Source: Thermococcus sp. JdFR-02 (GTDB taxonomy: Archaea; Methanobacteriota_B; Thermococci; Thermococcales; Thermococcaceae). From it: a stretch of DNA of 64,000 nucleotides. The notes beneath the pieces were generated by a model. The model saw only the letters and a program-made list of their open reading frames with translations, was not told the origin of the DNA and ran no database searches. Below are positions 3,509-45,067 of the stretch, piece by piece. Numbering within the stretch: the first letter of the stretch is position 1; each line of letters begins with the position of its first letter. Location: contig MTLP01000031.1 in assembly GCA_002009975.1 (NCBI GenBank), forward strand, positions 1 to 64,000, given 5' to 3'. Made by a program: the position numbers and the translations under genes.

Positions 3509-3646
3509 ACATACCTACTTCTCTCATCAGCCTTATAAAAATTAGGAATCCAATCTATTAAAGTGAAGGTAGTGAGCGCTGTTAGCAAAAACATTCTTCA
3601 CGATTAGGAGCATAAAGTTCAAAAATCTCATAACTAATCTTTAAAT

Positions 3647-4159
3647 ATGTTAGAGAGGCTTCTCAAACCAAAGTTTATAGTTTTCATGGTAAGATATCTC
3701 CCCAATCCAAAGACAGACGAATTGCTTTTAGAATTAAAGACTAGAGCTACTCGATTTGCTGAAGTAAAAGACAACTCTGAGCTAGAGACGAAGATTGAAC
3801 CTTTTATAGCATCTCTTCTTGAAGAAAAGTACATCTACATTGTAAAATTCTCGGAAAAAGTATTTATCTTTGCAGGCTATGAACCTCTGTTAAAATTCTC
3901 CTCTGGTGATAAAATTCTTGTCAAGCATGAAGAAGCACTTTTAAAAGTCGTCAAGGGCGAATTTGTTAGAAAAGAGAAAATCAGAAGAGTTCTTTTTTCA
4001 ATTTTGTTTGCCATGTTAATTAGCTTGATGCTTTCATATGGAACTCTTGACAAACCTTTTTCTTGGTCTCTCTACTTCATTTTAATTGTCATTGGTGATC
4101 TTATACTTCGTATTCTTGAGTATATACTCGTTGGTTATTGTACGGACTGGGCAATCTAA
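3647..4159 (+). CDS. Hypothetical protein with two C-terminal TM helices
   Basis: 170 aa ORF filling the intergenic gap; hydrophobic C-terminus. Confidence 0.65.
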   Translation: MLERLLKPKFIVFMVRYLPNPKTDELLLELKTRATRFAEVKDNSELETKIEPFIASLLEEKYIYIVKFSEKVFIFAGYEPLLKFSSGDKILVKHEEALLKVVKGEFVRKEKIRRVLFSILFAMLISLMLSYGTLDKPFSWSLYFILIVIGDLILRILEYILVGYCTDWAI

Positions 4160-34754: not shown

Positions 34755-36686
34755 ATGAAGAAGTTCGCCTTATTCTTATTTTTTCTCTTACCATTTGCTA
34801 CAGCGGGTCAAGCTGTTGATGTCTATCTCTATTTAGGACAGCTTATAGAAGTAAACGATGTTCCAATAGAGCTCTTGGATATTTCAAAAACTGGTGACAA
34901 AGCTGCTATAAAAGTAGGTAATGATACTTACGTCTTGAGTTTCGGAGAAAGTATTATCTACGAGAACTGGACAATTCACATGGGGAGCATAGAGCTTTCC
35001 AAGAAGAGAGTTCGTCTAATTCTTGAAGGAGTCGAGAGCATAAAAGGCTCAAGCAGACTGAACATAGAGATTCCCTATCCGAGTAAAGTAGCGTCTCTAA
35101 GAGACGAAGTAAGCTTTACTCTTCAAATTACAAACGAAGGAGATGATGCTCTGTTCCCCCTAAGCTACGCTCTTCCAAAGGACTTTGAGGCTTATTTCTA
35201 CGCTGAGAACAGCAAAGTGAATGAAGTTTACATAAAGCATGGAGAAACGAAAACCATAACCTTTGTTGTTAAAGTCTCAAATGTTGAAGGTGAGTTTGAC
35301 ATCTATGCCTTTGTTGGAAACTCTTCAGCAAAAATGCACTTAAGTGTAGAGAGCAAAGAGGAATATGAAGTTCACGCGGAGTATTTAGGAAAAGCTGTTG
35401 AAGCTGGTCAGGAAGTAACTTTTCCTATAACAATCAAAGCATATAGTGATACATTAGTTTCACTAAATGCATCTGCTCCAGAAGGATGGAAAGTTTACTT
35501 CAAATCTGGGAGTGAGAAGGTTACAAAGCTCTATTTATTTAAGGGAAGCAATATACCTCTAACTTTAGTCATCAGCATTCCAAGTGACACTCTAATTGGG
35601 ACATATAATGTAAGCGCAAATATTGGGAGTGAAGTGCTTGTCTTCGAGGTATATGTGGAAGAAACACACGCTGGCGAAAATGGTATAATAACTTTAAGGG
35701 TCACTGATTCCTCAAATGGCGCTTACATTTCTAGTGCTCTTGTGGAAGTTCTGAATGAAAATGAAACACTTGATCAAGTTTATACAACGCCTGATGGGAG
35801 AGCTCAACTTGAAGTGCCTGAGGGAAGCTATACATTGAGAGTAAGCAAAGAAGGATATGAAAGTTATGAGAAAGAATTTGAAGTTGAAGCAGGAAAAAAT
35901 ATCGATCTTGGAATAATAAGCCTCGATAAAATACCTTACTATTATACTCTTGAGTGCAACGAGCCCTCCAAAAGTGCTGTTCTGGGAGAAAGCCTGCAGT
36001 ATAAGATAATTATAGAGAATCTAGGTTTACAAGATGATTCATACAAGCTGACACTAAGAGACTTGCCTGATAACTGGGCTTACCGCATAGTAGAAAGCCT
36101 TAACTCAAAAGTAGGGATAAGCGAGACATTCGTAAAGGCTGATTCTCAAAAGACTATCTACCTAATAATTATTCCTCCCAATAATGCTGAGCTCAAAAAG
36201 TACAACTTCATTATTGAAGTGCAATCAAGAGGAAACAAAGAAGTGAAAGAGCTTGAATTAGAAGCAAACCTTATAGGGAGCTACGACATGAATATAAACC
36301 TCGAGCGTTATAGTTTCGAAATGAAAACAGGGGAAACAAAAGAGATAAGCGTTTGGATTTACAATAGTGGCTCAAGTCCACTAACGAATGTTCAGCTTAA
36401 TGTAGAAGTACCTGAAGGATGGCTCGTCACTATAGAGCCAGATGGTGTTGCTTCAATAGAAGCAAATAAATATGCCGAGTTTAAAGTTTCTATAACAAGT
36501 CCTCAAAATCTTGAAGCCGGTGATTATAAAATTACAATAAAAGCCAGCAGTGATCAACTTAGCAAAGAAGAAAATGTTAGAATAACAATAAAGAAAAGCA
36601 GTACACAGACCTATTTGGGCATTGGGATAATACTCATCTCCATGTTATTACTAGGTGCATTGCTTAAGAAATATGGAAGAAAGTGA
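34755..36686 (+). CDS. Membrane-anchored NEW3/Ig-repeat surface protein, paralog of 9759..11975
   Basis: Signal peptide, APEGW and LPDNW repeats, VSKEGYE, C-terminal TYLGIGII TM plus KYGRK. Confidence 0.8.
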   Translation: MKKFALFLFFLLPFATAGQAVDVYLYLGQLIEVNDVPIELLDISKTGDKAAIKVGNDTYVLSFGESIIYENWTIHMGSIELSKKRVRLILEGVESIKGSSRLNIEIPYPSKVASLRDEVSFTLQITNEGDDALFPLSYALPKDFEAYFYAENSKVNEVYIKHGETKTITFVVKVSNVEGEFDIYAFVGNSSAKMHLSVESKEEYEVHAEYLGKAVEAGQEVTFPITIKAYSDTLVSLNASAPEGWKVYFKSGSEKVTKLYLFKGSNIPLTLVISIPSDTLIGTYNVSANIGSEVLVFEVYVEETHAGENGIITLRVTDSSNGAYISSALVEVLNENETLDQVYTTPDGRAQLEVPEGSYTLRVSKEGYESYEKEFEVEAGKNIDLGIISLDKIPYYYTLECNEPSKSAVLGESLQYKIIIENLGLQDDSYKLTLRDLPDNWAYRIVESLNSKVGISETFVKADSQKTIYLIIIPPNNAELKKYNFIIEVQSRGNKEVKELELEANLIGSYDMNINLERYSFEMKTGETKEISVWIYNSGSSPLTNVQLNVEVPEGWLVTIEPDGVASIEANKYAEFKVSITSPQNLEAGDYKITIKASSDQLSKEENVRITIKKSSTQTYLGIGIILISMLLLGALLKKYGRK

Positions 36687-36747
36687 GCCTTTTCATCTTT
36701 TTTGAATATCTTTTTTCATTAAATAAAGTTTAGAAAAAAGAAAAAGC

Positions 36748-38253
36748 TCAAATATCAACCTCCCCCTTTTCCTTCAACTCCTTGTACATCTTCCAGGTTA
36801 TTATTGGTCTCTTTGCCGCTAAAACGTCGTCAACCCTTCTTACAGCCGTGTTATGTGGAGCGCTCTTTACCATTTCGGGATTATTGTATGCTTCTTCACT
36901 TATCTTCTTCAATGCATTGACGTAAGCATCAAGCTCTTCCTTTGTAACGGTTTCAGTTGGTTCAATCATTAAAGCTTCATGTACAATTAATGGGAAGTAG
37001 ATTGTTGGAGCGTGTAAACCAAAGTCAAGCAGTCTTTTAGCTACATCTAAGGTCTTAACTCCAGTTTCCTTCTTCATTGGCTCTGCACTAAAGACAACTT
37101 CATGTTTTCTAAGCTCTTTATGAGGTAATTCATAACCTTTTGTTCCTTTGAGCTTTTGCGTTAAGTAGTTTGCATTGAGAACAGCCATTTCTCCTGCTTC
37201 TTTTAATCCGCTCTTGCCCATTATCTTGAGATAAGTTAAAGCCCTAACTAAGACTGCAAAGTTTCCATAAAATTCTTTAACCTTCCCAATACTCTTTGGC
37301 AGGTTATAGTTAAGATAATACCTGCCCTCCTCTTCATCGTAATCCACTATTGGGACTGGAAGGTACTTAATGAGGTGCTTTTTAACTCCAACTGGACCAG
37401 CCCCAGGACCTCCACCACCGTGGGGTGTTGAGAAAGTCTTATGCAAATTAATGTGGACAACATCAAATCCCATATCCCCTGGTCTAACTTTGCCAAGAAT
37501 TCCATTTAAGTTTGCACCATCGTAATAAAGCAATCCACCAGCTTTGTGCACAATCTTGGCTATCTCCAAAATGTCTTCCTCAAAGATGCCCAGCGTGTTT
37601 GGATTGGTTAGCATCAATCCAGCTGTTTTCTCACTTACTGCATTTTCTAAAGCCTCTAAATCCACCATGCCTTGTTCATTTGAAGGAATTTCAATAACTT
37701 TAAAGCCTGCCACTGCAGCACTTGCTGGATTAGTACCATGTGCCGAATCTGGAACTATAATCTCATTTCTTTGCGTTTCACCCTTATCCAGATGGTAAGC
37801 CCTAATTATCATGACCCCAGTGAATTCACCATTTGCACCTGCTGCTGGTTGCAGAGTGAAGCGATCCATACCAGTTATTTCCTTTAACCATTGTTCGAGC
37901 TCATACATTATTTGCAAAGCACCTTGTACTGTTCTTTCATCTTGATAGGGATGAATAAATGTAACCTTTGGATGAAAAGCCATCTCTTCATTAATCTTTG
38001 GATTATATTTCATTGTACAAGAGCCGAGAGGATAAAATCCGCTATCTACACCAAAGTTCATCTCACTAAGCCTTGTGTAGTGCTTAACAATCTCAGGCTC
38101 GCTGACTTCTGGTAAGTCAACTTCCTTTCTCCTTAGTTTCTCAGGAATCTGGATCTCAATATCTTCAATTGGCTCTGGAAGTGAAAACCCAATCCTTCCA
38201 GGTTTGGAGAGTTCAAATATCAAAGGTTCATCCCATTTAGCCTGTCTGAACAT
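36748..38253 (-). CDS. gcvPB: Glycine cleavage system P protein subunit 2
   Basis: [38 protein letters not shown]. Confidence 0.97.
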
Positions 38254-38263
38254 TTTTACCACC

Positions 38264-39619
38264 TCACAGTCCAGCCTCCGCTATTATCTCCTTCAATGAT
38301 TCAACTAACGCATTAATCCATTCTTTTCTTGTTGTTTCAGTTACTGCAAATAAAGCACTCTCTCCAAGCTCTGGAAAGTGCTGTTTTAAGTAAAATCCAC
38401 CGTGAATGTTCCTCTCTAAAAGCCTTTCATGAATTGCATCGTATGGAACATCAAACCTCACCAAGACATCTTTGAAGTTTATCCCATCAAAAGGAATCTC
38501 AGCAACTTCGCTTATACGTTTCTTAAAGTAAGCGGTGTTTTTGAGAATTATTTCACCCAATTTTTGAAGCCCTTTTGGTCCAAGTGAAGCTATGTGAATT
38601 GCAGCAGCTACAGCTACTAAAGCCTCATTTGAACAAATATTTGAAGTTGCTTTAGCTCTCCTAATATGCTGCTCTCTCGTTTGCAAAGTCATTACAAAAG
38701 CTCTCTTTCCTTCAGCATCTTTTGTCATTCCAATTATCCTTCCAGGCATTTGTCTAATTAGTTTTTTATCATTTCTAACAGCAAAAATTCCCGCTCTCGG
38801 ACCACCAAAATTCATTGGATTTCCAAAGAAAGCCGCTTCACCTATTACAACATCTGCCCCATAATTCCCTGGTGCCTCAAAAATTCCTAAGCTGGTTGGA
38901 TCAACGCCGACTATAAATAGAGCATCGTTTTCATGAGCTATCTTTCCAATTTCTTCAACATTTTCTTCAATTAGCCCAAAGAAGTTCGGCATTTCAACAT
39001 AAACTCCAGCTGCACCTTTTACTTTCTTCTCTAGCTCTTCTAAGTTTATCTGTCCTTTTTCATCCCAATTAATGTACTCAATTTGCATGTTAGCCCCAGC
39101 AACATAAGTGTGAAGAACTTTTTTCTTTTCTGGGCTTAAGTGTTTTGGAACAATAAATTTAGCTCTCTTCTTAACTCTATAGCTCATTAAAGCTGCTTCG
39201 CCTAAAGCAGTTCCCCAATCATACATTGATGCATTTACAATCTCCAGTCCAACTAGTTCAGCAATTAGACTTTGGTATTCAAAGAGAGCTTGGAGCATTC
39301 CTTGACTAATCTCTGCTTGGTACGGAGTATAAGCTGTTAAAAATTCGCTTCTTGATATTAGATACTTCACGTGAGCTGGTACATAGTGATTGTAAGTTCC
39401 TGCACCTAAGAAAATGGGAATCTCCAGAGCTGTTTTGTTTTTGCTTAAAATCTCGTTCATTTCAAGGAATACTTCATATTCGCTTTTACCCTCTGGTAAG
39501 TTAAATTCATGCATCACTTCCTTTGGAACATCAGAAAAAAGCTCATCAATGGAAGTAAAGCCAATCTCTCTGAGCATCTCTTCTTTATGCGCTAAATTTG
39601 GTAAATATTGCTTCGCCAT
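38264..39619 (-). CDS. gcvPA: Glycine cleavage system P protein subunit 1
   Basis: [39 protein letters not shown]. Confidence 0.97.
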
Positions 39620-39780
39620 AGGCATCACCTTAAAACAATCATCATAATATTTTGCACATCTAAAATATATGTCTTGTGATTGACTAAACATTAGGTGATG
39701 GATATATAACTTATGGTGTGAAACACATTTGACCAGAAATGCTTAAAAGTGATGAGTATCTACATTGACTCGGTGAAAAA

Positions 39781-40929
39781 ATGATCATCTATTTAGATAA
39801 TGCAAACACAACTAAACCTGACCCAGAGGTTATTAAGATCATGCTTGAGTACTTAGAAGAGAAATACGGAGCTCCAGGAGGGGAATTTGGGCACATATTT
39901 GATGAAGATGCAAGGGAAGCAGTGGAGATAGCAAGGGAAAAGATAGCGAGAGAGATAAATGCATCCCCAGAGGAGATTATTTTTGTCTCAGATGAGATAG
40001 AAGCGGATAATATAGCAATAAAGGGAGTAGCATTCCAAAAGGGCAAGGGGAAAGTGCTGACAAGTAAAATTGAAAGAAAAGCAATCATAAACACGGTGAA
40101 GCGATTGAAAGAATTTGACTTCGAAGCTCATGAAATCAGTGTTGATAGAGAAGGCTTCATTAAAATCGATGAACTGCAGAATAACTTAAATGATGCAATC
40201 CTCTTTGCGACTCATCATGGAAATTTTGAAATTGGTACTATCCAGAATGTAAGAGCTATAAGCGACTTAGTTCATGAGAAAGGTGCGTTGCTCTACTTGG
40301 ATGCAACTCAAAGCTTCGGAAAAGTTAAAATCGATGTCAAAAAACTTGATGTTGATTTAATGAGCATTACAGCCCATCTAATTCATGGACCTAAAGGGAT
40401 AGCCGCCCTCTATATAAGAGATGGAATCAAAATAAAGCCTATTTTAGATGGAGATGTAAGGGAAAGAGGTATTAGACCTGGAATGATAAACGTTCCAGCT
40501 ATTGCTGGTTTTGGAAAAGCTGTTGAGTTAATTAATTATGAAGATGCAAAGAGAATGGCAAAACTGAGGGATAAACTTATTGATTTATTGCTCACGATCC
40601 CAGATACAAAGTTAAATGGTCCAAAAGGGGATAAGAGGCTTCCACATAACGTTAATGTTTCATTTGCTTATGTTGAAGGTGAAAGTGTATTATTGCACTG
40701 CGACATGAGGGGATTAGTATTCTCAACTGGTTCAGCTTGTTATTCCCAAGAACTCCTGCCAAGCCATGTTATCAGAGGTATAGGGGGCTCATTTGAAGAC
40801 GCTCACGGCTCAGTAAGGCTTAGTCTAAGCAAGTGGACAACAGAAGAAGAGATAATTAAGGCTTATGAGATATTAAAAGATGTTGTAACTAAGCTGAGGG
40901 AAATAAGCATTTATGGTGGGAAGAAATGA
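39781..40929 (+). CDS. iscS: IscS/NifS-like (class V aminotransferase fold) protein with a degenerate PLP site
   Basis: IYLDN, DATQSFGK, HGPKG, STGSAC group I loop; the PLP Lys position is Leu200 and the His position is Arg99. Confidence 0.85.
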   Translation: MIIYLDNANTTKPDPEVIKIMLEYLEEKYGAPGGEFGHIFDEDAREAVEIAREKIAREINASPEEIIFVSDEIEADNIAIKGVAFQKGKGKVLTSKIERKAIINTVKRLKEFDFEAHEISVDREGFIKIDELQNNLNDAILFATHHGNFEIGTIQNVRAISDLVHEKGALLYLDATQSFGKVKIDVKKLDVDLMSITAHLIHGPKGIAALYIRDGIKIKPILDGDVRERGIRPGMINVPAIAGFGKAVELINYEDAKRMAKLRDKLIDLLLTIPDTKLNGPKGDKRLPHNVNVSFAYVEGESVLLHCDMRGLVFSTGSACYSQELLPSHVIRGIGGSFEDAHGSVRLSLSKWTTEEEIIKAYEILKDVVTKLREISIYGGKK

Positions 40930-41147
40930 TTAAAATCAATGTTGTTGGAAAACCTTGTCCAGTCCCACTCAATGAGTTTAGAAAAGCGATTAGAAGAGCC
41001 CCAGTTGGCGAAATTATTGAAATAATCGGAACGCATGAGCTTAGTAAAGGAGAAATAGCCCTAGCCGCTGAAGAAACTGGGCAGGAAATTCTGGAAATCG
41101 ATGAAAAAGATGGAGTATGGAGGATAGTTGTAAAAAAGGTGAGGTAA
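40926..41147 (+). CDS. tusA: TusA/SirA-family sulfur carrier
   Basis: 73 aa with the GKPCPVP (CPxP) motif. Confidence 0.88.
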   Translation: MIKINVVGKPCPVPLNEFRKAIRRAPVGEIIEIIGTHELSKGEIALAAEETGQEILEIDEKDGVWRIVVKKVR

Positions 41148-41795
41148 ATGGAGAGATTCGATGCAAGAAAGTGGGATGAGAAGAAACGTATAGGCTACTC
41201 AAGAAAGGTCTTGCAGTTATTCTTAAATCCAAAAAACGTTGGAGAAATTGAAAATCCGTCAGTCACGGCAAAAGCAGGAAGTCCAGCCTGTGGTGACATG
41301 ATAAAGCTTTATTTAAAGATTGAGGATGATAGAATAGTTGATGCAAAGTTTAGGACATATGGGTGTGCCGCTAACATAGCCACAGCTTCTATGCTAACCG
41401 AGATGATAATTGGAAAACCTGTTGAAGAAGCTAAAAAGATTAAATTTAAAGACCTCGTAGAAGCTCTTGGTGGTTTGCCTCAAATCAAATATCACTGTGC
41501 TGTTTTAGCTGCTGAAGGTTTGAGACAAGCTTTAGCAAAGTGGGATGTCATTCAAGGAAAAAGAAAAATTGATGAGAGCTTTGTTAAACTGATATTGGCT
41601 GCTGTTATTGATCCTCTCACAGGTGAGAGCGTTCTTCACGGACATAAATATCTCGGCTGTGAAATAGAAGGTAAAAAAGTCAAGATAAAGCTCGCCATTC
41701 CCAAGGATAGTGAAGAGGCAATTGTGTTTGAAGAGCAAATTAGAGAATCTTTTGAAGGTTTAGATGTTGATTTAGAGATCGAGTTCTTGGGGTAA
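41148..41795 (+). CDS. iscU: IscU/NifU-N Fe-S scaffold with C-terminal DUF59/SufT-like extension
   Basis: NPKNVG, PACGD, YGCAAN, KYHCAVLA; tail LAAVIDPLTG resembles DUF59 VIDPExG. Confidence 0.85.
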   Translation: MERFDARKWDEKKRIGYSRKVLQLFLNPKNVGEIENPSVTAKAGSPACGDMIKLYLKIEDDRIVDAKFRTYGCAANIATASMLTEMIIGKPVEEAKKIKFKDLVEALGGLPQIKYHCAVLAAEGLRQALAKWDVIQGKRKIDESFVKLILAAVIDPLTGESVLHGHKYLGCEIEGKKVKIKLAIPKDSEEAIVFEEQIRESFEGLDVDLEIEFLG

Positions 41796-41851
41796 ACTTT
41801 TTATTTTCATTCTTTTAAAAAAGAGCAACTTATTATGAGGAGGAGCAACTG

Positions 41852-42526
41852 ATGATAGTAGCCTTTGATTTTGATGGCACTTTAGTAGACAGCTATACAG
41901 TAATAGAGGAAGCTTTTAGAAGAGCTTTAGAAAAACACTTTCCTTGGCTCCCCCTCAAGGGTTTCTGGGCTAAGATACTAACTAAAATAGAGCTTTACTT
42001 TGAAAGACCTCGCTTTGGAAAGCATAGAGGAAAAGTAAAACAACCTTTTTTCTTCAGATGGAAGTTTTTTAAAAGCTGGTTTGAAGAGAGAGCAAAGTTA
42101 AGTAAGCCTATAGATGACTCTAAGGAAGTTTTAAAGAAGCTTAGGGAAGAAGGACACAAGGTTATTTCCTTCTCAGCTGAGGATTTTGTAAATGGCATGA
42201 AGGAGTATCGTCTAAAAATTAGCGGTTTTTATGAACTTTTTGATGATGTAATAGTATTTGGCACTGAAATAAGCCCATGCGAGGCTATTCAGATAGTTAG
42301 AGAGAGATACGGTGATGATGTTTTTATTTGGGTAGATGACAAGCCCTGGCGCTTTATTGGAAGAGGGGATGAGAATACAGAATATGTCTGGTATTATTTC
42401 CCGCCAACAGCAAAATTTGTAAATGAAAAAATTTTGGAACAAATTCATCATTTACATGTAATCCAAGACTTGTGGAGCATTTTTGATGTTATTGAAAGGA
42501 TAAAGAAGGAAAGAAAGTCAAAATAA
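41852..42526 (+). CDS. HAD-superfamily hydrolase
   Basis: AFDFDGTLVDS, WVDD. Confidence 0.85.
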   Translation: MIVAFDFDGTLVDSYTVIEEAFRRALEKHFPWLPLKGFWAKILTKIELYFERPRFGKHRGKVKQPFFFRWKFFKSWFEERAKLSKPIDDSKEVLKKLREEGHKVISFSAEDFVNGMKEYRLKISGFYELFDDVIVFGTEISPCEAIQIVRERYGDDVFIWVDDKPWRFIGRGDENTEYVWYYFPPTAKFVNEKILEQIHHLHVIQDLWSIFDVIERIKKERKSK

Positions 42527-42577
42527 AGGATTAGCCTAACCAGAGAACTTTTAAAAACCAAAATTTTAATTTAATTT

Positions 42578-43258
42578 ATGAGCTTACAGCTGCTACCACA
42601 AAAAGCCATCAAGCTTGGAAATGTTCTTATCATTGCTGACCTTCACTTAGGTTTTGAGGAAAGCTTAGCAAGAGAAGGAGCCTATTTGCCCAAAGCATTT
42701 GATGAGATGGTTTCTTCACTAAAAGGACTTCTCATAAAAGAAAAACCCAAAACCCTAATCATAAACGGAGATTTAAAACACTCTTTTATTCCATTTAAGA
42801 GAGAACGGCTCGAACTTAGAGCCTTTCTTGAAGAGATTCTTCCTTTAGTAAGCGAAATAATCGTTGTTAAAGGAAATCATGATGTTGGGATTTCTTGGAT
42901 AAAAGAGTTTGGCGTTGAGATTGTTGAAAAGCTTGAAATTAAAGGCTACACAATAACTCATGGACATCAACTCATTGAAGGGGAGAAATTTATCATAGGG
43001 CATGAGCATCCAGCCATAAAACTTAGAGATGAAGTTGGAGCTTTAATAAAGGTTCCAATCTTTTTGATTAGTGAAGATTTAATTGTTCTACCTGCTTTCA
43101 CCCCTTGGGCTTATGGAAACGATATTTTAAGGGAAATAATTTCTCCATATCTAGAAAAATTTGATATTAAAACATCTAAAATCCTAGTTTCCCTCGAAGA
43201 TGAAATCTTAGATTTTGGAACACTTGAAAAATTGATAGAGGCTCTGAGGAAGATTTAA
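42578..43258 (+). CDS. Calcineurin-like metallophosphoesterase
   Basis: ADLHLG, NGDLKH, GNHD, THGH, GHEHP, LPAF. Confidence 0.9.
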   Translation: MSLQLLPQKAIKLGNVLIIADLHLGFEESLAREGAYLPKAFDEMVSSLKGLLIKEKPKTLIINGDLKHSFIPFKRERLELRAFLEEILPLVSEIIVVKGNHDVGISWIKEFGVEIVEKLEIKGYTITHGHQLIEGEKFIIGHEHPAIKLRDEVGALIKVPIFLISEDLIVLPAFTPWAYGNDILREIISPYLEKFDIKTSKILVSLEDEILDFGTLEKLIEALRKI

Positions 43259-43292
43259 ATTTCTTAAACTCCAAATTTAATTTGGTGATCAC

Positions 43293-43988
43293 ATGGATGT
43301 TTTAAGTGCTATTGTATTCTTTGCATATGCCCCTGCTCTGGCGTTACTTTGGTACTTCTATCACGAAGATAAGCTCGAACCAGAGCCCAAAAAATATGTT
43401 ATTGGGACGTTCTTTTTAGGAGCAACCCTGTCAGTTTTAATAGCAATGCTTGTTGAAAAAATTCTAGTTCCAAATATTCTGCCTCCAACGGTTTTCTTTT
43501 TAGCTCTAACAGCTGGAATTGTTGAAGAACCAGCGAAAGCATTGGCAATTAAACTACCTTATAGAGCCGGGCAAATGGACGGTATTATGGACGGGGTTGT
43601 ATATGGTGTAGCTGCAGGCTTAGGATTTGCCGCAACTGAGAATTTGCTCTATGGTTTGGGTTACGGAATTGGGGCTACCATAGTAAGAGGATTTTTAACG
43701 CCTTTTGCCCACGCTACATGGAGTTCAATCATTGGTATAGGGTATGGCTTAAAGGCTGAAGGAAAAATACATAGCTTAACAAACTATTTTGCATTAGCAA
43801 TTCTGTTGCACTTCATTTGGGATTACTACGCATTCTTAAGCGTCAACATTCCAGCATACTATGTGGTGATATTCTTGTTAATATTCGTTAACATGGCACT
43901 TACAAGATACTTTATAATGCTTGGACAGAGAGAAGATTTGGAAAAAATGTGGTGGTATTGGTTTGTGGGAGGTAGAAGATATGAGTAA
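43293..43988 (+). CDS. PrsW-family intramembrane protease
   Basis: EPEP, GIVEEPAK, GLGFAATEN, AH and LH motifs. Confidence 0.9.
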   Translation: MDVLSAIVFFAYAPALALLWYFYHEDKLEPEPKKYVIGTFFLGATLSVLIAMLVEKILVPNILPPTVFFLALTAGIVEEPAKALAIKLPYRAGQMDGIMDGVVYGVAAGLGFAATENLLYGLGYGIGATIVRGFLTPFAHATWSSIIGIGYGLKAEGKIHSLTNYFALAILLHFIWDYYAFLSVNIPAYYVVIFLLIFVNMALTRYFIMLGQREDLEKMWWYWFVGGRRYE

Positions 43989-44184
43989 AATTGAGGATGC
44001 ACTGTTTGAGGCTCGCCCTTATGTTGAGTATTTCGATGAGCTGAAAAAAACTGTTAAAAAGATAAATGAGATAGCTAAGAGTGAAGAAGAATTTAAAAGA
44101 CTCATTGAAGAGGAAATTCAAAAAGCTCAGGAACCATTTAAAACTGATTTACGGATTTTTCTCCAGAAATTTGAAGCTCTTTGA
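43981..44184 (+). CDS. Small hypothetical helical protein
   Basis: ATG 43981 after GGAGGT SD, overlapping the prsW stop; 67 aa. Confidence 0.75.
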   Translation: MSKIEDALFEARPYVEYFDELKKTVKKINEIAKSEEEFKRLIEEEIQKAQEPFKTDLRIFLQKFEAL

Positions 44185-44242
44185 TTTTTTCTTTTATCGA
44201 AAAATTTATTAACTTTCAGATTAAGTAAATATTGGTGAAACT

Positions 44243-45067
44243 ATGGAAAAATTTGTAACTTTTGGTATTATTTTCTTAATCATAATTTCATTTTCTGCCT
44301 GCATTTCTCAAGAAAAAGAACTCACAAAAGAGAGCATCTTAAAAGCAATCGATGGGATTAATGCCTACACTTATGAGGTAAATAGAGTCGAGAGAAGAGC
44401 AGGCAGAGAATATGAAATATATCTCCATGAAGGGATAGATCGAGAAAGAAAAATATTTTTTGCATTTATAAACATTAGAGTGAAATTTGAAGAAACATCT
44501 GGAAGAACCAGGACATGGGAATATTTTGATGGCTCTAAGCTCTATGCAAGAATTGAGCAAAAAGAAAATGGAAGAATGAAGAATGTGACATTTTCCTATA
44601 CTATTGACGAACTTTACAATCTCACACATAAATATCTAAAAAATGTGAGCAGAGAAGAGTATCTTAAACGCGTGATGAATAGAAGAGACTTTTTAATCAG
44701 CAAACTGAAAGTCTTGCTGTCCAAGGCAGAAATCAAGTCTATAGAAAGGGATGGAAAACAGTACAAGGTAACATTTGAGGTTCATAACGAGTATGAGAGT
44801 GTCCCAAATATAACAATCTCCAATGCTAATCCAACCGTTATAGAAGACTACAAAGAAAGCATGAGAAGCTGGATCATTGAAGAGATGCAAGGCAAACTCT
44901 GGGTCGATAATAAAGGAAGACCTACAAAACTTGAAGTTGAAAACAGAAGACGTATAACATTTAAATTGGCGAACAAAACTTATGAGGAATTCATCCAATA
45001 TAACATTACTTTCACTTACATGTTTGAGCTTCCAAAATGGGTCAATGGAATAAAAGAAAAAAGCTGA
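44243..45067 (+). CDS. Putative lipoprotein
   Basis: Signal peptide with FSAC lipobox-like motif; beta-rich body. Confidence 0.7.
   Translation: MEKFVTFGIIFLIIISFSACISQEKELTKESILKAIDGINAYTYEVNRVERRAGREYEIYLHEGIDRERKIFFAFINIRVKFEETSGRTRTWEYFDGSKLYARIEQKENGRMKNVTFSYTIDELYNLTHKYLKNVSREEYLKRVMNRRDFLISKLKVLLSKAEIKSIERDGKQYKVTFEVHNEYESVPNITISNANPTVIEDYKESMRSWIIEEMQGKLWVDNKGRPTKLEVENRRRITFKLANKTYEEFIQYNITFTYMFELPKWVNGIKEKS

Follow-up and report, generated by a model that had tools for sequence, protein, structure and literature searches.

Proteins related to the cysteine desulfurase IscS that have lost the lysine forming the Schiff base with pyridoxal phosphate (PLP) are already known, and in this work we compare them with an operon of Thermococcus sp. 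JdFR-02 that encodes an IscS-like protein, a TusA-family sulfur carrier and an IscU scaffold. The operon lies in a stretch of 64,000 nucleotides (GenBank assembly GCA_002009975.1, contig MTLP01000031.1, positions 1 to 64,000 of the forward strand), which is called the window in the following. One of the known proteins is IscS2 of Archaeoglobus fulgidus (PDB 4eb5, 4eb7 and 4hvk; D199K variant 4r5f). According to the passages of PMC7585200 and PMC8918507 that deal with it, Asp replaces the Lys, the protein is inactive, and its Cys is a ligand of the cluster; the latter source adds that it binds pyridoxamine phosphate (PMP) or PLP non-covalently. The published passages on its complex with IscU describe isolation with a stable [2Fe-2S] cluster between the Cys of IscS and the D35A variant of IscU. 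The other is IscS1 of Methanosarcina acetivorans (MA0808), encoded in the isc1 cluster with IscU1 (MA0807) and four further genes, the function of which is given as unknown in the part of PMC7585200 concerned. Table 1 and the related text of that paper state that the PLP-binding residues of IscS1, including the lysine, are absent and that STGSACFS is present, and describe IscU1 as a protein of 24.2 kDa with C45, D47, C72 and C116.

Two further systems are relevant to the comparison. The MIS system, MisS-MisU (Garcia et al. 2022), consists of an IscS/IscU pair without chaperones, ferredoxin or A-type carrier; according to the portions of PMC12442378 and PMC13066941 that treat it, archaea have it in addition to an SMS/SUF system. 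In E. coli, direct binding of TusA (3lvj) and IscU (3lvl) to IscS is documented in the consulted text, so the same three protein families as in the window are involved.

The window operon shares with A. fulgidus the type I IscS fold, the missing Schiff-base lysine, the kept Cys loop and the adjacent IscU, and the A. fulgidus protein, which the preliminary description of this DNA had proposed as an analogue, is indeed the closest relative of known structure. The differences are that the lysine position is occupied by Leu and not Asp, that A. fulgidus IscS2 retains SGATE, EH, NNE and the binding of PMP/PLP, that residues 153-215 of the window IscU have no counterpart in the 153-residue IscU chain of 4eb5, and that the window operon includes a TusA, of which the literature text on the A. 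fulgidus system makes no mention in the passages concerned. Compared to the TusA-DsrE-IscS-IscU-DUF59 cassette of the M. acetivorans isc1 type, the window has the lysine-less IscS, the IscU-DUF59 and the TusA but no DsrE; the size of M. acetivorans IscU1 equals that of an IscU-DUF59 fusion. As in MIS, no HscAB, Fdx or IscA was found among the open reading frames (ORFs) around the operon. MisS is described in the text available as a cysteine desulfurase, whereas the window protein is without the PLP lysine, and the definition of MIS includes neither TusA nor DUF59, both of which are present in the window.

We consider that the operon is, with a probability of roughly 0.6, a second, ISC/MIS-type iron-sulfur (Fe-S) assembly module whose IscS-like subunit would no longer be a PLP enzyme. 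A lysine-less IscS is already known from A. fulgidus and has been noted, without characterisation, as M. acetivorans IscS1. What is new here is the Thermococcaceae form, which is without DsrE genome-wide, has a pocket more decayed than that of most of its clade, and exists beside a class II desulfurase and SufB/D. Our literature search for this clade returned A. fulgidus and M. acetivorans only, and the paper that defines MIS and Fig. S1/S2 of PMC7585200 may already show the Leu clade and its gene neighbours; a 2026 review, in its text on MIS as far as available, mentions no lysine-less clade, TusA or DUF59.

Cofactor site and conservation of the IscS-like protein

The IscS-like protein matches the Pfam family Aminotran_5 (PF00266) with 204 bits. 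It also matches the NCBIfam equivalog models for NifS (389.4 against a cut-off of 530.75) and IscS (335.5 against 643.2) over their full length, in both cases far under the cut-off. Among solved structures, A. fulgidus IscS2 (4eb5/4r5f) is matched best, at E about 1e-88 (2e-88 for the best match, 4e-88 for 4eb5), ahead of E. coli IscS. In order to assign residues, we aligned the protein to E. coli IscS (1p3w) and to A. fulgidus IscS2 (4eb5). The SGATE position reads S70-D71-E72-I73-E74, the E-H position E98-R99, the NNEIG position N148-F149-E150, the S-x-H-K position T197-A198-H199-L200 and the RSGT position R232-P233-G234-M235, while the SGSAC position reads T316-G-S-A-C320, so that STGSAC is intact. 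Asp174 and Gln177 are retained in the window protein, while position 177 is His in the remaining orthologues. We take the roles of these positions in the Schiff base, ring stacking, phosphate binding and substrate contacts to be those of the E. coli enzyme. The preliminary description had claimed that the PLP-site residues were lost and Cys320 kept, and every substitution it named was found again in the alignment to both structures. Of the features of a type I cysteine desulfurase, the fold and the loop Cys are present, and the Schiff-base Lys, the other contacts and an equivalog-level score are absent. What is found instead corresponds to a lysine-less IscS paralogue: the Lys is replaced, the Cys loop is kept, and an IscU with the full set of ligands is adjacent. 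The AlphaFold model of the protein (pLDDT 87.0, pTM 0.87) is uncertain exactly at residues 30-39, 223-234 and 320-324, which are the loops round the old active site.

Loss of the lysine alone would not prove a cofactor-free protein, because A. fulgidus IscS still binds PMP/PLP without it. The PLP-independent reading of the preliminary description therefore stands as far as the loss of the cofactor site is concerned, and not as a conclusion from the lysine. The losses beyond Lys make a cofactor-free state of the window protein likely, as judged from the residues present.

Conservation was assessed in 97 Thermococcaceae genomes, the genus-level groups of which are labelled g2 to g6. The IscS-like gene is present in 12 of them, including the window's own: in 2 of 3 genomes of g2, in 1 of 14 of g5 (protein 97% identical to that of the window) and in all 8 of g6, and in none of the 9 g3 and 62 g4 genomes. 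Eleven full-length orthologues from four genus-level groups, with 84-97% identity, contain no stops or frameshifts (the twelfth is split over two contigs). All 11 show SDE[IT]E, IERK, GNFEIG, [ST][AS]HLIHGPKG, RPGM and STGSAC, with Leu200 throughout. The TusA gene is next in all 11, and a long IscU gene follows it wherever the locus extends far enough; the genomes with IscU (PF01592), which is present in one copy each, are these 12 of the 97 and no others. The ratio of non-synonymous to synonymous substitution rates (dN/dS, NG86) had a median of 0.052 and a range of 0.031-0.141 in the 42 of 55 orthologue pairs with dS < 3, the remaining 13 pairs being saturated and left out. These comparisons indicate that the cofactor-site substitutions are fixed under strong purifying selection and are not decay. 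Strain-specific decay, which the preliminary description had named as one outcome that would overturn it, was not what we found.

The surroundings of the module vary within the family. In g6 and g2 it directly follows the gene of a helix-turn-helix (HTH) protein of 131-152 amino acids (aa) with three C-terminal cysteines, and a gene for a CPYC thioredoxin-like protein lies directly downstream (L018:1023-1436 and 3576-3926, with the same layout in L016 and L019). In the window's genome the HTH and thioredoxin-like genes are adjacent to each other on contig 1 (L108:1501-1896 and 1947-2303) and the module is elsewhere; they are also adjacent without the module in 3 of 3 g5 loci examined. The HTH regulator with three C-terminal cysteines occurs in 72 of the 97 genomes. 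This suggests that the module was inserted between, or excised from between, these two genes.

The lysine-less clade and its gene neighbourhoods

Beyond the family, we used a word-indexed protein search, which favours shared words such as LIHGPKG and whose figures refer to the best 120 matches. These consist of 12 Thermococcaceae-type proteins (83-97% identity) and, after a gap, of matches at 53-58%, and the lysine position is Leu in 118 and Met in 2. Source names among the 12 include 'cysteine desulfurase family protein' for Thermococcus sp. and 'hypothetical protein' for Palaeococcus pacificus. An unbiased search of 50%-identity representatives gave, in the best 150, Lys in 133, Leu in 7, Thr in 3, Asp in 2, and Pro, Met, Ser, Ala and Gln in 1 each. 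The best of these representatives, P0121 (385 aa, 48% identical), has the decayed SDEV and IERK yet reads A-D-K at the lysine position, which is either a reversion or an alignment shift of one residue.

A scan of species-representative genomes with patterns including LIHGPKG, and hence biased to Leu by design, gave 80 loci. The archaeal loci are in Thermococci, in Thermoproteota including Korarchaeia, Bathyarchaeia, Nitrososphaeria and Nitrosopumilales, and in Thermoplasmata, Methanobacteriota, Methanofastidiosia, Iainarchaeum, and Hod- and Heimdallarchaeota. The bacterial ones comprise many Anaerolineae and other Chloroflexota and single loci in Spirochaetota, Cloacimonadota and Rokubacteria. 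In a FastTree phylogeny of 218 rows, a branch of 91 rows had 99% local support, with Leu in 85, Thr in 2, and Gln, Ser, Pro and Lys in 1 each at the lysine position. A quick IQ-TREE phylogeny of 76 chosen rows split 44 lysine-less rows from 32 others (SH-aLRT 97). In the trees the window protein pairs with P0122, and the next group, with 98% support in both, is formed by proteins from metagenome-assembled genomes (MAGs) labelled Methanobacteriota and Thermoplasmata, which likewise have the order IscS-TusA-IscU and a decayed pocket.

We then compared residues between the 91 lysine-less and 121 canonical rows, which are kin and not independent observations; 67 of the 91 were fetched by a Leu-containing pattern, and positions 200-206 are uninformative in them. 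His99 is kept in 24/91 lysine-less against 121/121 canonical rows, Asn149 in 0/91 against 113/121, Gln177 in 22/91 against 114/121 and Thr235 in 23/91 against 117/121, and all 121 canonical rows have Lys at the Schiff-base position. Cys320, Ser318, Asn148 and Glu150 are each present in 91/91 lysine-less rows, and the residue after Cys320 is aromatic in 79/91. The replacements at the old contact positions differ between lineages of the clade, which fits a constraint that was lost on the pocket and kept on the Cys loop. By these trees and alignments, the window protein belongs to a large lysine-less clade, mostly Lys-to-Leu, of many archaea and Chloroflexota. The preliminary description had called such a system unexpected for Thermococcales; it is indeed rare in the family, although it is a part of this wide clade and not an oddity of Thermococcales.

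The lysine may have been lost more than once in the wider family, since a Leu row from Rokubacteria and a Met row fall inside the canonical group in both trees, which points to at least one separate loss. With respect to A. fulgidus, the representative nearest to 4eb5 is P0174 (SSNDIYGPKG, 431 bits), which stands on the canonical side of the dividing branch in both trees, accompanied by a second row with Asp and one with Ala. Two trees thus favoured an independent lysine loss in the A. fulgidus lineage. An approximately unbiased (AU) test did not reject a tree that unites the P0174, Asp and Ala rows with the lysine-less clade (p-AU 0.59). The search under this constraint even ended 7.7 log-likelihood units above the quick free search, and we dropped the claim of independent loss after the test. 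M. acetivorans IscS1 would belong to the same clade, judging from motif and size.

IscU and TusA are both adjacent to the IscS-like gene in 47 of the 80 loci. Another 19, each with a flank of 2 kb or more, have IscU without TusA; 12 loci are cut by a contig end and 2 have neither, so that IscU is adjacent in 66 of the 68 loci with enough flank. The order IscS-TusA-IscU is found in Thermococci and two other archaeal loci, and IscS-IscU-TusA in Chloroflexota, other bacteria and Asgard archaea. Pfam searches covered 37 of the 217 flanking ORFs, which were selected for their position. In bacterial loci, the ORF just after TusA matched DrsE_2 in 15 of 16 cases (E 1e-29 to 1e-39) and rubrerythrin in one. 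In the two tested loci with a short IscU (L095 and L101), the next gene is a stand-alone PF01883 gene (L095:5745-6041 and L101:3532-3837, E about 1e-22), which is followed by a gene for a CobA/BtuR-type corrinoid adenosyltransferase (L095:6093-6644 and L101:3902-4453). In one archaeal MAG locus (L037:23-4003), genes on a single strand encode, in this order, DrsE_2, IscU-DUF59, a TusA-like protein, a further IscS-like protein with a weaker match (E 9e-75) and the Leu-type IscS-like protein, so that this cassette contains two IscS paralogues.

Partner proteins, locus and genomic context

The preliminary description had read the partners as a CPxP TusA and an IscU with three Cys and the conserved Asp, and both readings hold. 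The window TusA matches PF01206 with 64.4 bits (cut-off 28.6) and has the motif C11-P-V-P14; C11, P12, P14 and L15 are invariant in an alignment of 27 rows, and the motifs G-x-x-CP[VI]PL and GTH-x-SK-x-EI are common to cassette TusA proteins from archaea to Chloroflexota. The window IscU matches NifU_N with 140 bits at residues 17-136, and its best solved match is A. fulgidus IscU (E 1.6e-35). C48, D50, C73, H116 and C117 are invariant in 34 relatives.

In this respect the earlier reading was incomplete, and we add that the IscU is a fusion. Its C-terminus matches PF01883 with 16.5 bits (E 0.011) and also 14.5, under the cut-off of 23.5 bits, whereas 34 of 34 aligned long IscU relatives match this family, with a best E of 3.4e-14. 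In the AlphaFold model of the fusion (pLDDT 92.1, pTM 0.87), the best fold match of residues 139-215 is CIAO2B (6tbl_C; Z 8.6, root-mean-square deviation 2.3, 77 residues), followed by 2cu6 (Z 7.9), which we take to be a DUF59 protein of Thermus thermophilus, and by the N-terminal domain of ApbC (8zkc, Z 7.1). Although Z values of 7-8 are common by themselves, the fold Z together with the profile matches in relatives and the existence of split forms lead us to assign the C-terminus, by profile and model, to a diverged DUF59/MIP18 domain without conserved cysteine.

A predicted complex of the IscS-like protein with TusA had an ipSAE of 0.51, compared to 0.00 for the best of 3 controls. Of 157 solved complexes, 116 reach this ipSAE mark, as do 2 of 215 mismatches, and scores up to 0.60 are weak. 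Between runs, 85% or more of the contacts agree, with a pLDDT of 91 for the partner. This gives weak support to binding between the two proteins, and the pass may only mirror likeness because the E. coli IscS-TusA complex is a solved structure.

The features of the locus are collected in Table 1. The stop of the IscS-like gene and the start of TusA overlap (ATGA) and the IscU ATG directly abuts the TusA stop with zero gap, so the three genes form one tightly coupled operon, as had been described.

Table 1. Features of the IscS-TusA-IscU locus in the window
Feature	Position	Strand	Basis
IscS-like pseudo-desulfurase, class-V aminotransferase fold, 382 aa	39781-40929	+	ORF list, Pfam, alignments
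TusA-family sulfur carrier, 73 aa	40926-41147	+	ORF list, Pfam
IscU-DUF59 fusion scaffold, 215 aa	41148-41795	+	ORF list, Pfam, alignment, fold match
IscU (NifU_N) domain with C48, D50, C73, H116, C117 and LPQIK motif	41196-41555	+	
C-terminal DUF59/MIP18 (FeS_assembly_P)-like domain, residues ~137-215	41556-41792	+	
Codon CTA, Leu200, Schiff-base lysine position	40378-40380	+	Sequence and alignment to 1p3w, 4eb5
Codon TGT, Cys320, putative persulfide/ligand cysteine, mobile loop	40738-40740	+	Sequence and alignment
Codon AGA, Arg99	40075-40077	+	Read from sequence
Upstream intergenic region common to the divergent minus-strand gene, presumed promoter	39692-39780	+	A/T-rich boxes
Presumed ribosome-binding site GGTGA before the IscS-like ATG	39772-39776	+	Read from sequence
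T-rich tract 3' of the IscU stop, presumed end of the transcription unit	41796-41826	+	Inferred from sequence

The SurR-type site GTTN3AAC occurs 18 times in the window (17.3 expected) and not once in 35321-44780, hence not near the operon. A scan for bacterial promoters and terminators, which is not suited to archaea, found nothing exceeding shuffles. Contigs from four metatranscriptome runs (one marine-sediment sample, one study) cover the operon at ~96-97% identity; a single contig spans 39804-42147. The source of these contigs is a close relative and not the strain of the window. Upstream, a divergent pair of ORFs of 504 and 475 aa (36748-39691, minus strand) has weak PF00266 matches and presumably encodes the two subunits of a glycine-cleavage P protein; for the 475 aa ORF, the start as listed may lie too far upstream. 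Downstream are a HAD-family hydrolase (41852-42526, PF00702, E 4e-12) and a calcineurin-like metallophosphoesterase (42578-43258, PF00149, E 5e-9) without evident link to the operon.

Elsewhere in the genome, the strongest PF00266 match (C2:186782-187882, 473 bits; L001:1462-2661, minus strand) is an ORF of 399 aa with FSGHKGPLGP and RSGHHCA motifs, which represents an intact desulfurase of class II (SufS/Csd type). Enzymes of the same type have been characterised in T. kodakarensis and T. onnurineus, as far as the sources on them extend. The gene adjoins an ORF of 270 aa, for which a TrmB-like nature is a guess from sequence. Contig 1 carries neighbouring SufB- and SufD-like frames. The genome has two more TusA-family matches; one of these proteins, with 79 aa (C38:3238-3447; L105:1495-1734, minus strand), has C-P-D in place of CPxP and scores 73.5 bits with PF01206, above the operon TusA. 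Searches of the whole genome, which is rated 99.99% complete, with PF02635 and PF13686 gave no DsrE-family gene. Going by these gene assignments, the operon is a second system beside a canonical class II desulfurase and SufB/D. The preliminary description had proposed that sulfur comes from sulfide/polysulfide or TusA. Since an intact class II desulfurase and SufB/D are present, the operon does not point to an organism independent of cysteine, and the proposal would concern the operon as a second system only.

Proposed function and alternative explanations

Because a desulfurase look-alike has lost its cofactor site and is nevertheless strongly conserved, the operon probably builds Fe-S clusters without itself taking sulfur from cysteine. 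In the mechanism that we propose, an IscS-like dimer would bind IscU, as in the (IscS-IscU)2 complex of A. fulgidus, and by the same analogy Cys320 may contribute the fourth ligand to the [2Fe-2S] cluster being assembled. It may also, or instead, relay a persulfide. The sulfur would arrive from outside as sulfide, as polysulfide, or as a persulfide on the co-encoded TusA, which may be loaded by the class II desulfurase of the genome. The fused DUF59 domain would help to hand the cluster on in a SufT/CIA2-type fashion. According to the part of PMC13015791 concerned, sulfide can feed IscU in E. coli without IscS. In E. coli, sulfur passes from the PLP site to the partners; in the window, if TusA binds, the flow would be reversed or would bypass IscS.

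The partners themselves raise the first alternative, that the operon serves sulfur trafficking for tRNA thiolation, for molybdopterin or another thio-cofactor, or for selenium, with the IscS-like protein as an adaptor of TusA. The consulted passages on E. coli describe TusA as an acceptor of sulfur from IscS that is destined for tRNA thiolation and the molybdenum cofactor. The window TusA has a weak match to YedF selenium-metabolism models (E 7e-6, under cut-off), and the frequent DsrE-type carrier of the bacterial cassettes would suit this role. On the other hand, the most constant partner of the clade is an IscU with all ligands, this IscU is fused to, or followed by, a DUF59 domain of Fe-S assembly, and TusA is missing in the 19 loci that have IscU only. 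We therefore regard trafficking as an unlikely main function.

Somewhat less probable still is a device for holding, sensing or repair, in which a cluster would be kept between IscU and Cys320 and not made de novo; the purpose could be storage, a signal to the nearby regulator, or repair. The stable [2Fe-2S] cluster of the isolated A. fulgidus complex (with IscU D35A, in the passages noted above) would be in line with it, as would the place of the module in two related genus groups, where a three-cysteine HTH regulator precedes it and a CPYC thioredoxin-like gene comes directly after it. The window's genome, however, has the regulator and the thioredoxin-like gene elsewhere without the module, and IscU has kept the conserved Asp50, a residue that renders clusters labile and hence transferable.

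It appears very improbable that the protein has remained a cysteine desulfurase, or is some other PLP/PMP enzyme, and works without the Schiff-base lysine. The intact fold, the retained Asp174, His199, Arg346 and Cys320, and the PMP bound by lysine-less A. fulgidus IscS (in the source text available) speak for it. Against this stand the invariant Lys of the canonical relatives, the inactivity reported for the A. fulgidus protein in the text consulted, the equivalog scores, and the further changes G71D, A72E, T73I, R99, Asn149 (F) and Thr235 (M). A functionless decaying remnant, to which the many missing catalytic residues might otherwise point, is already contradicted by the uninterrupted orthologues with 84-97% identity, by a dN/dS of about 0.05 and by a clade kept with the same neighbours across archaeal and bacterial phyla, and can be set aside.

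Several points weigh against the preferred reading of a second assembly module without a PLP enzyme. On sequence alone, cofactor binding by the window protein is possible, as PMP/PLP is bound by A. fulgidus IscS even though the lysine is missing, and Asp174 (86/91) and Arg346 (84/91) are still conserved in the lysine-less rows. The contigs from RNA libraries do not prove transcription of the operon, and the genes next to it show similar coverage. According to the passage on it in PMC7585200, M. acetivorans IscS1 ended up in inclusion bodies. Finally, the genome has a class II desulfurase and SufB/D of its own, and, as stated in the part of PMC12442378 concerned, an S0-dependent route exists already in T. 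kodakarensis, whose equipment is limited to SmsBC and a single desulfurase, so that the need for the module is not explained.

We also put forward, quite tentatively, a wider proposal: the lysine-less clade may represent a widespread cysteine-independent synthesis of Fe-S clusters in anaerobes, in which sulfane sulfur or sulfide would pass on TusA (with DsrE in some) to the Cys320 loop and be built into a cluster on IscU, which DUF59 would then hand on, the Thermococcaceae form being minimal and the old pocket either empty or re-used for another ligand.

How Fe-S clusters are fed with sulfur in anaerobes that live with sulfide or elemental sulfur is an open question, as reviews of SMS/MIS put it in the portions at hand. 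A conserved look-alike without the cofactor site, linked to IscU and in many cases to persulfide carriers as well, gives a concrete candidate route that can be tested. The label 'cysteine desulfurase', as it appears in public names, would be misleading for these genes and should be used with caution. As the module exists beside a normal desulfurase and SUF/SMS, its own contribution would be separable by genetics, and the group includes genetically tractable, well-studied hyperthermophiles.

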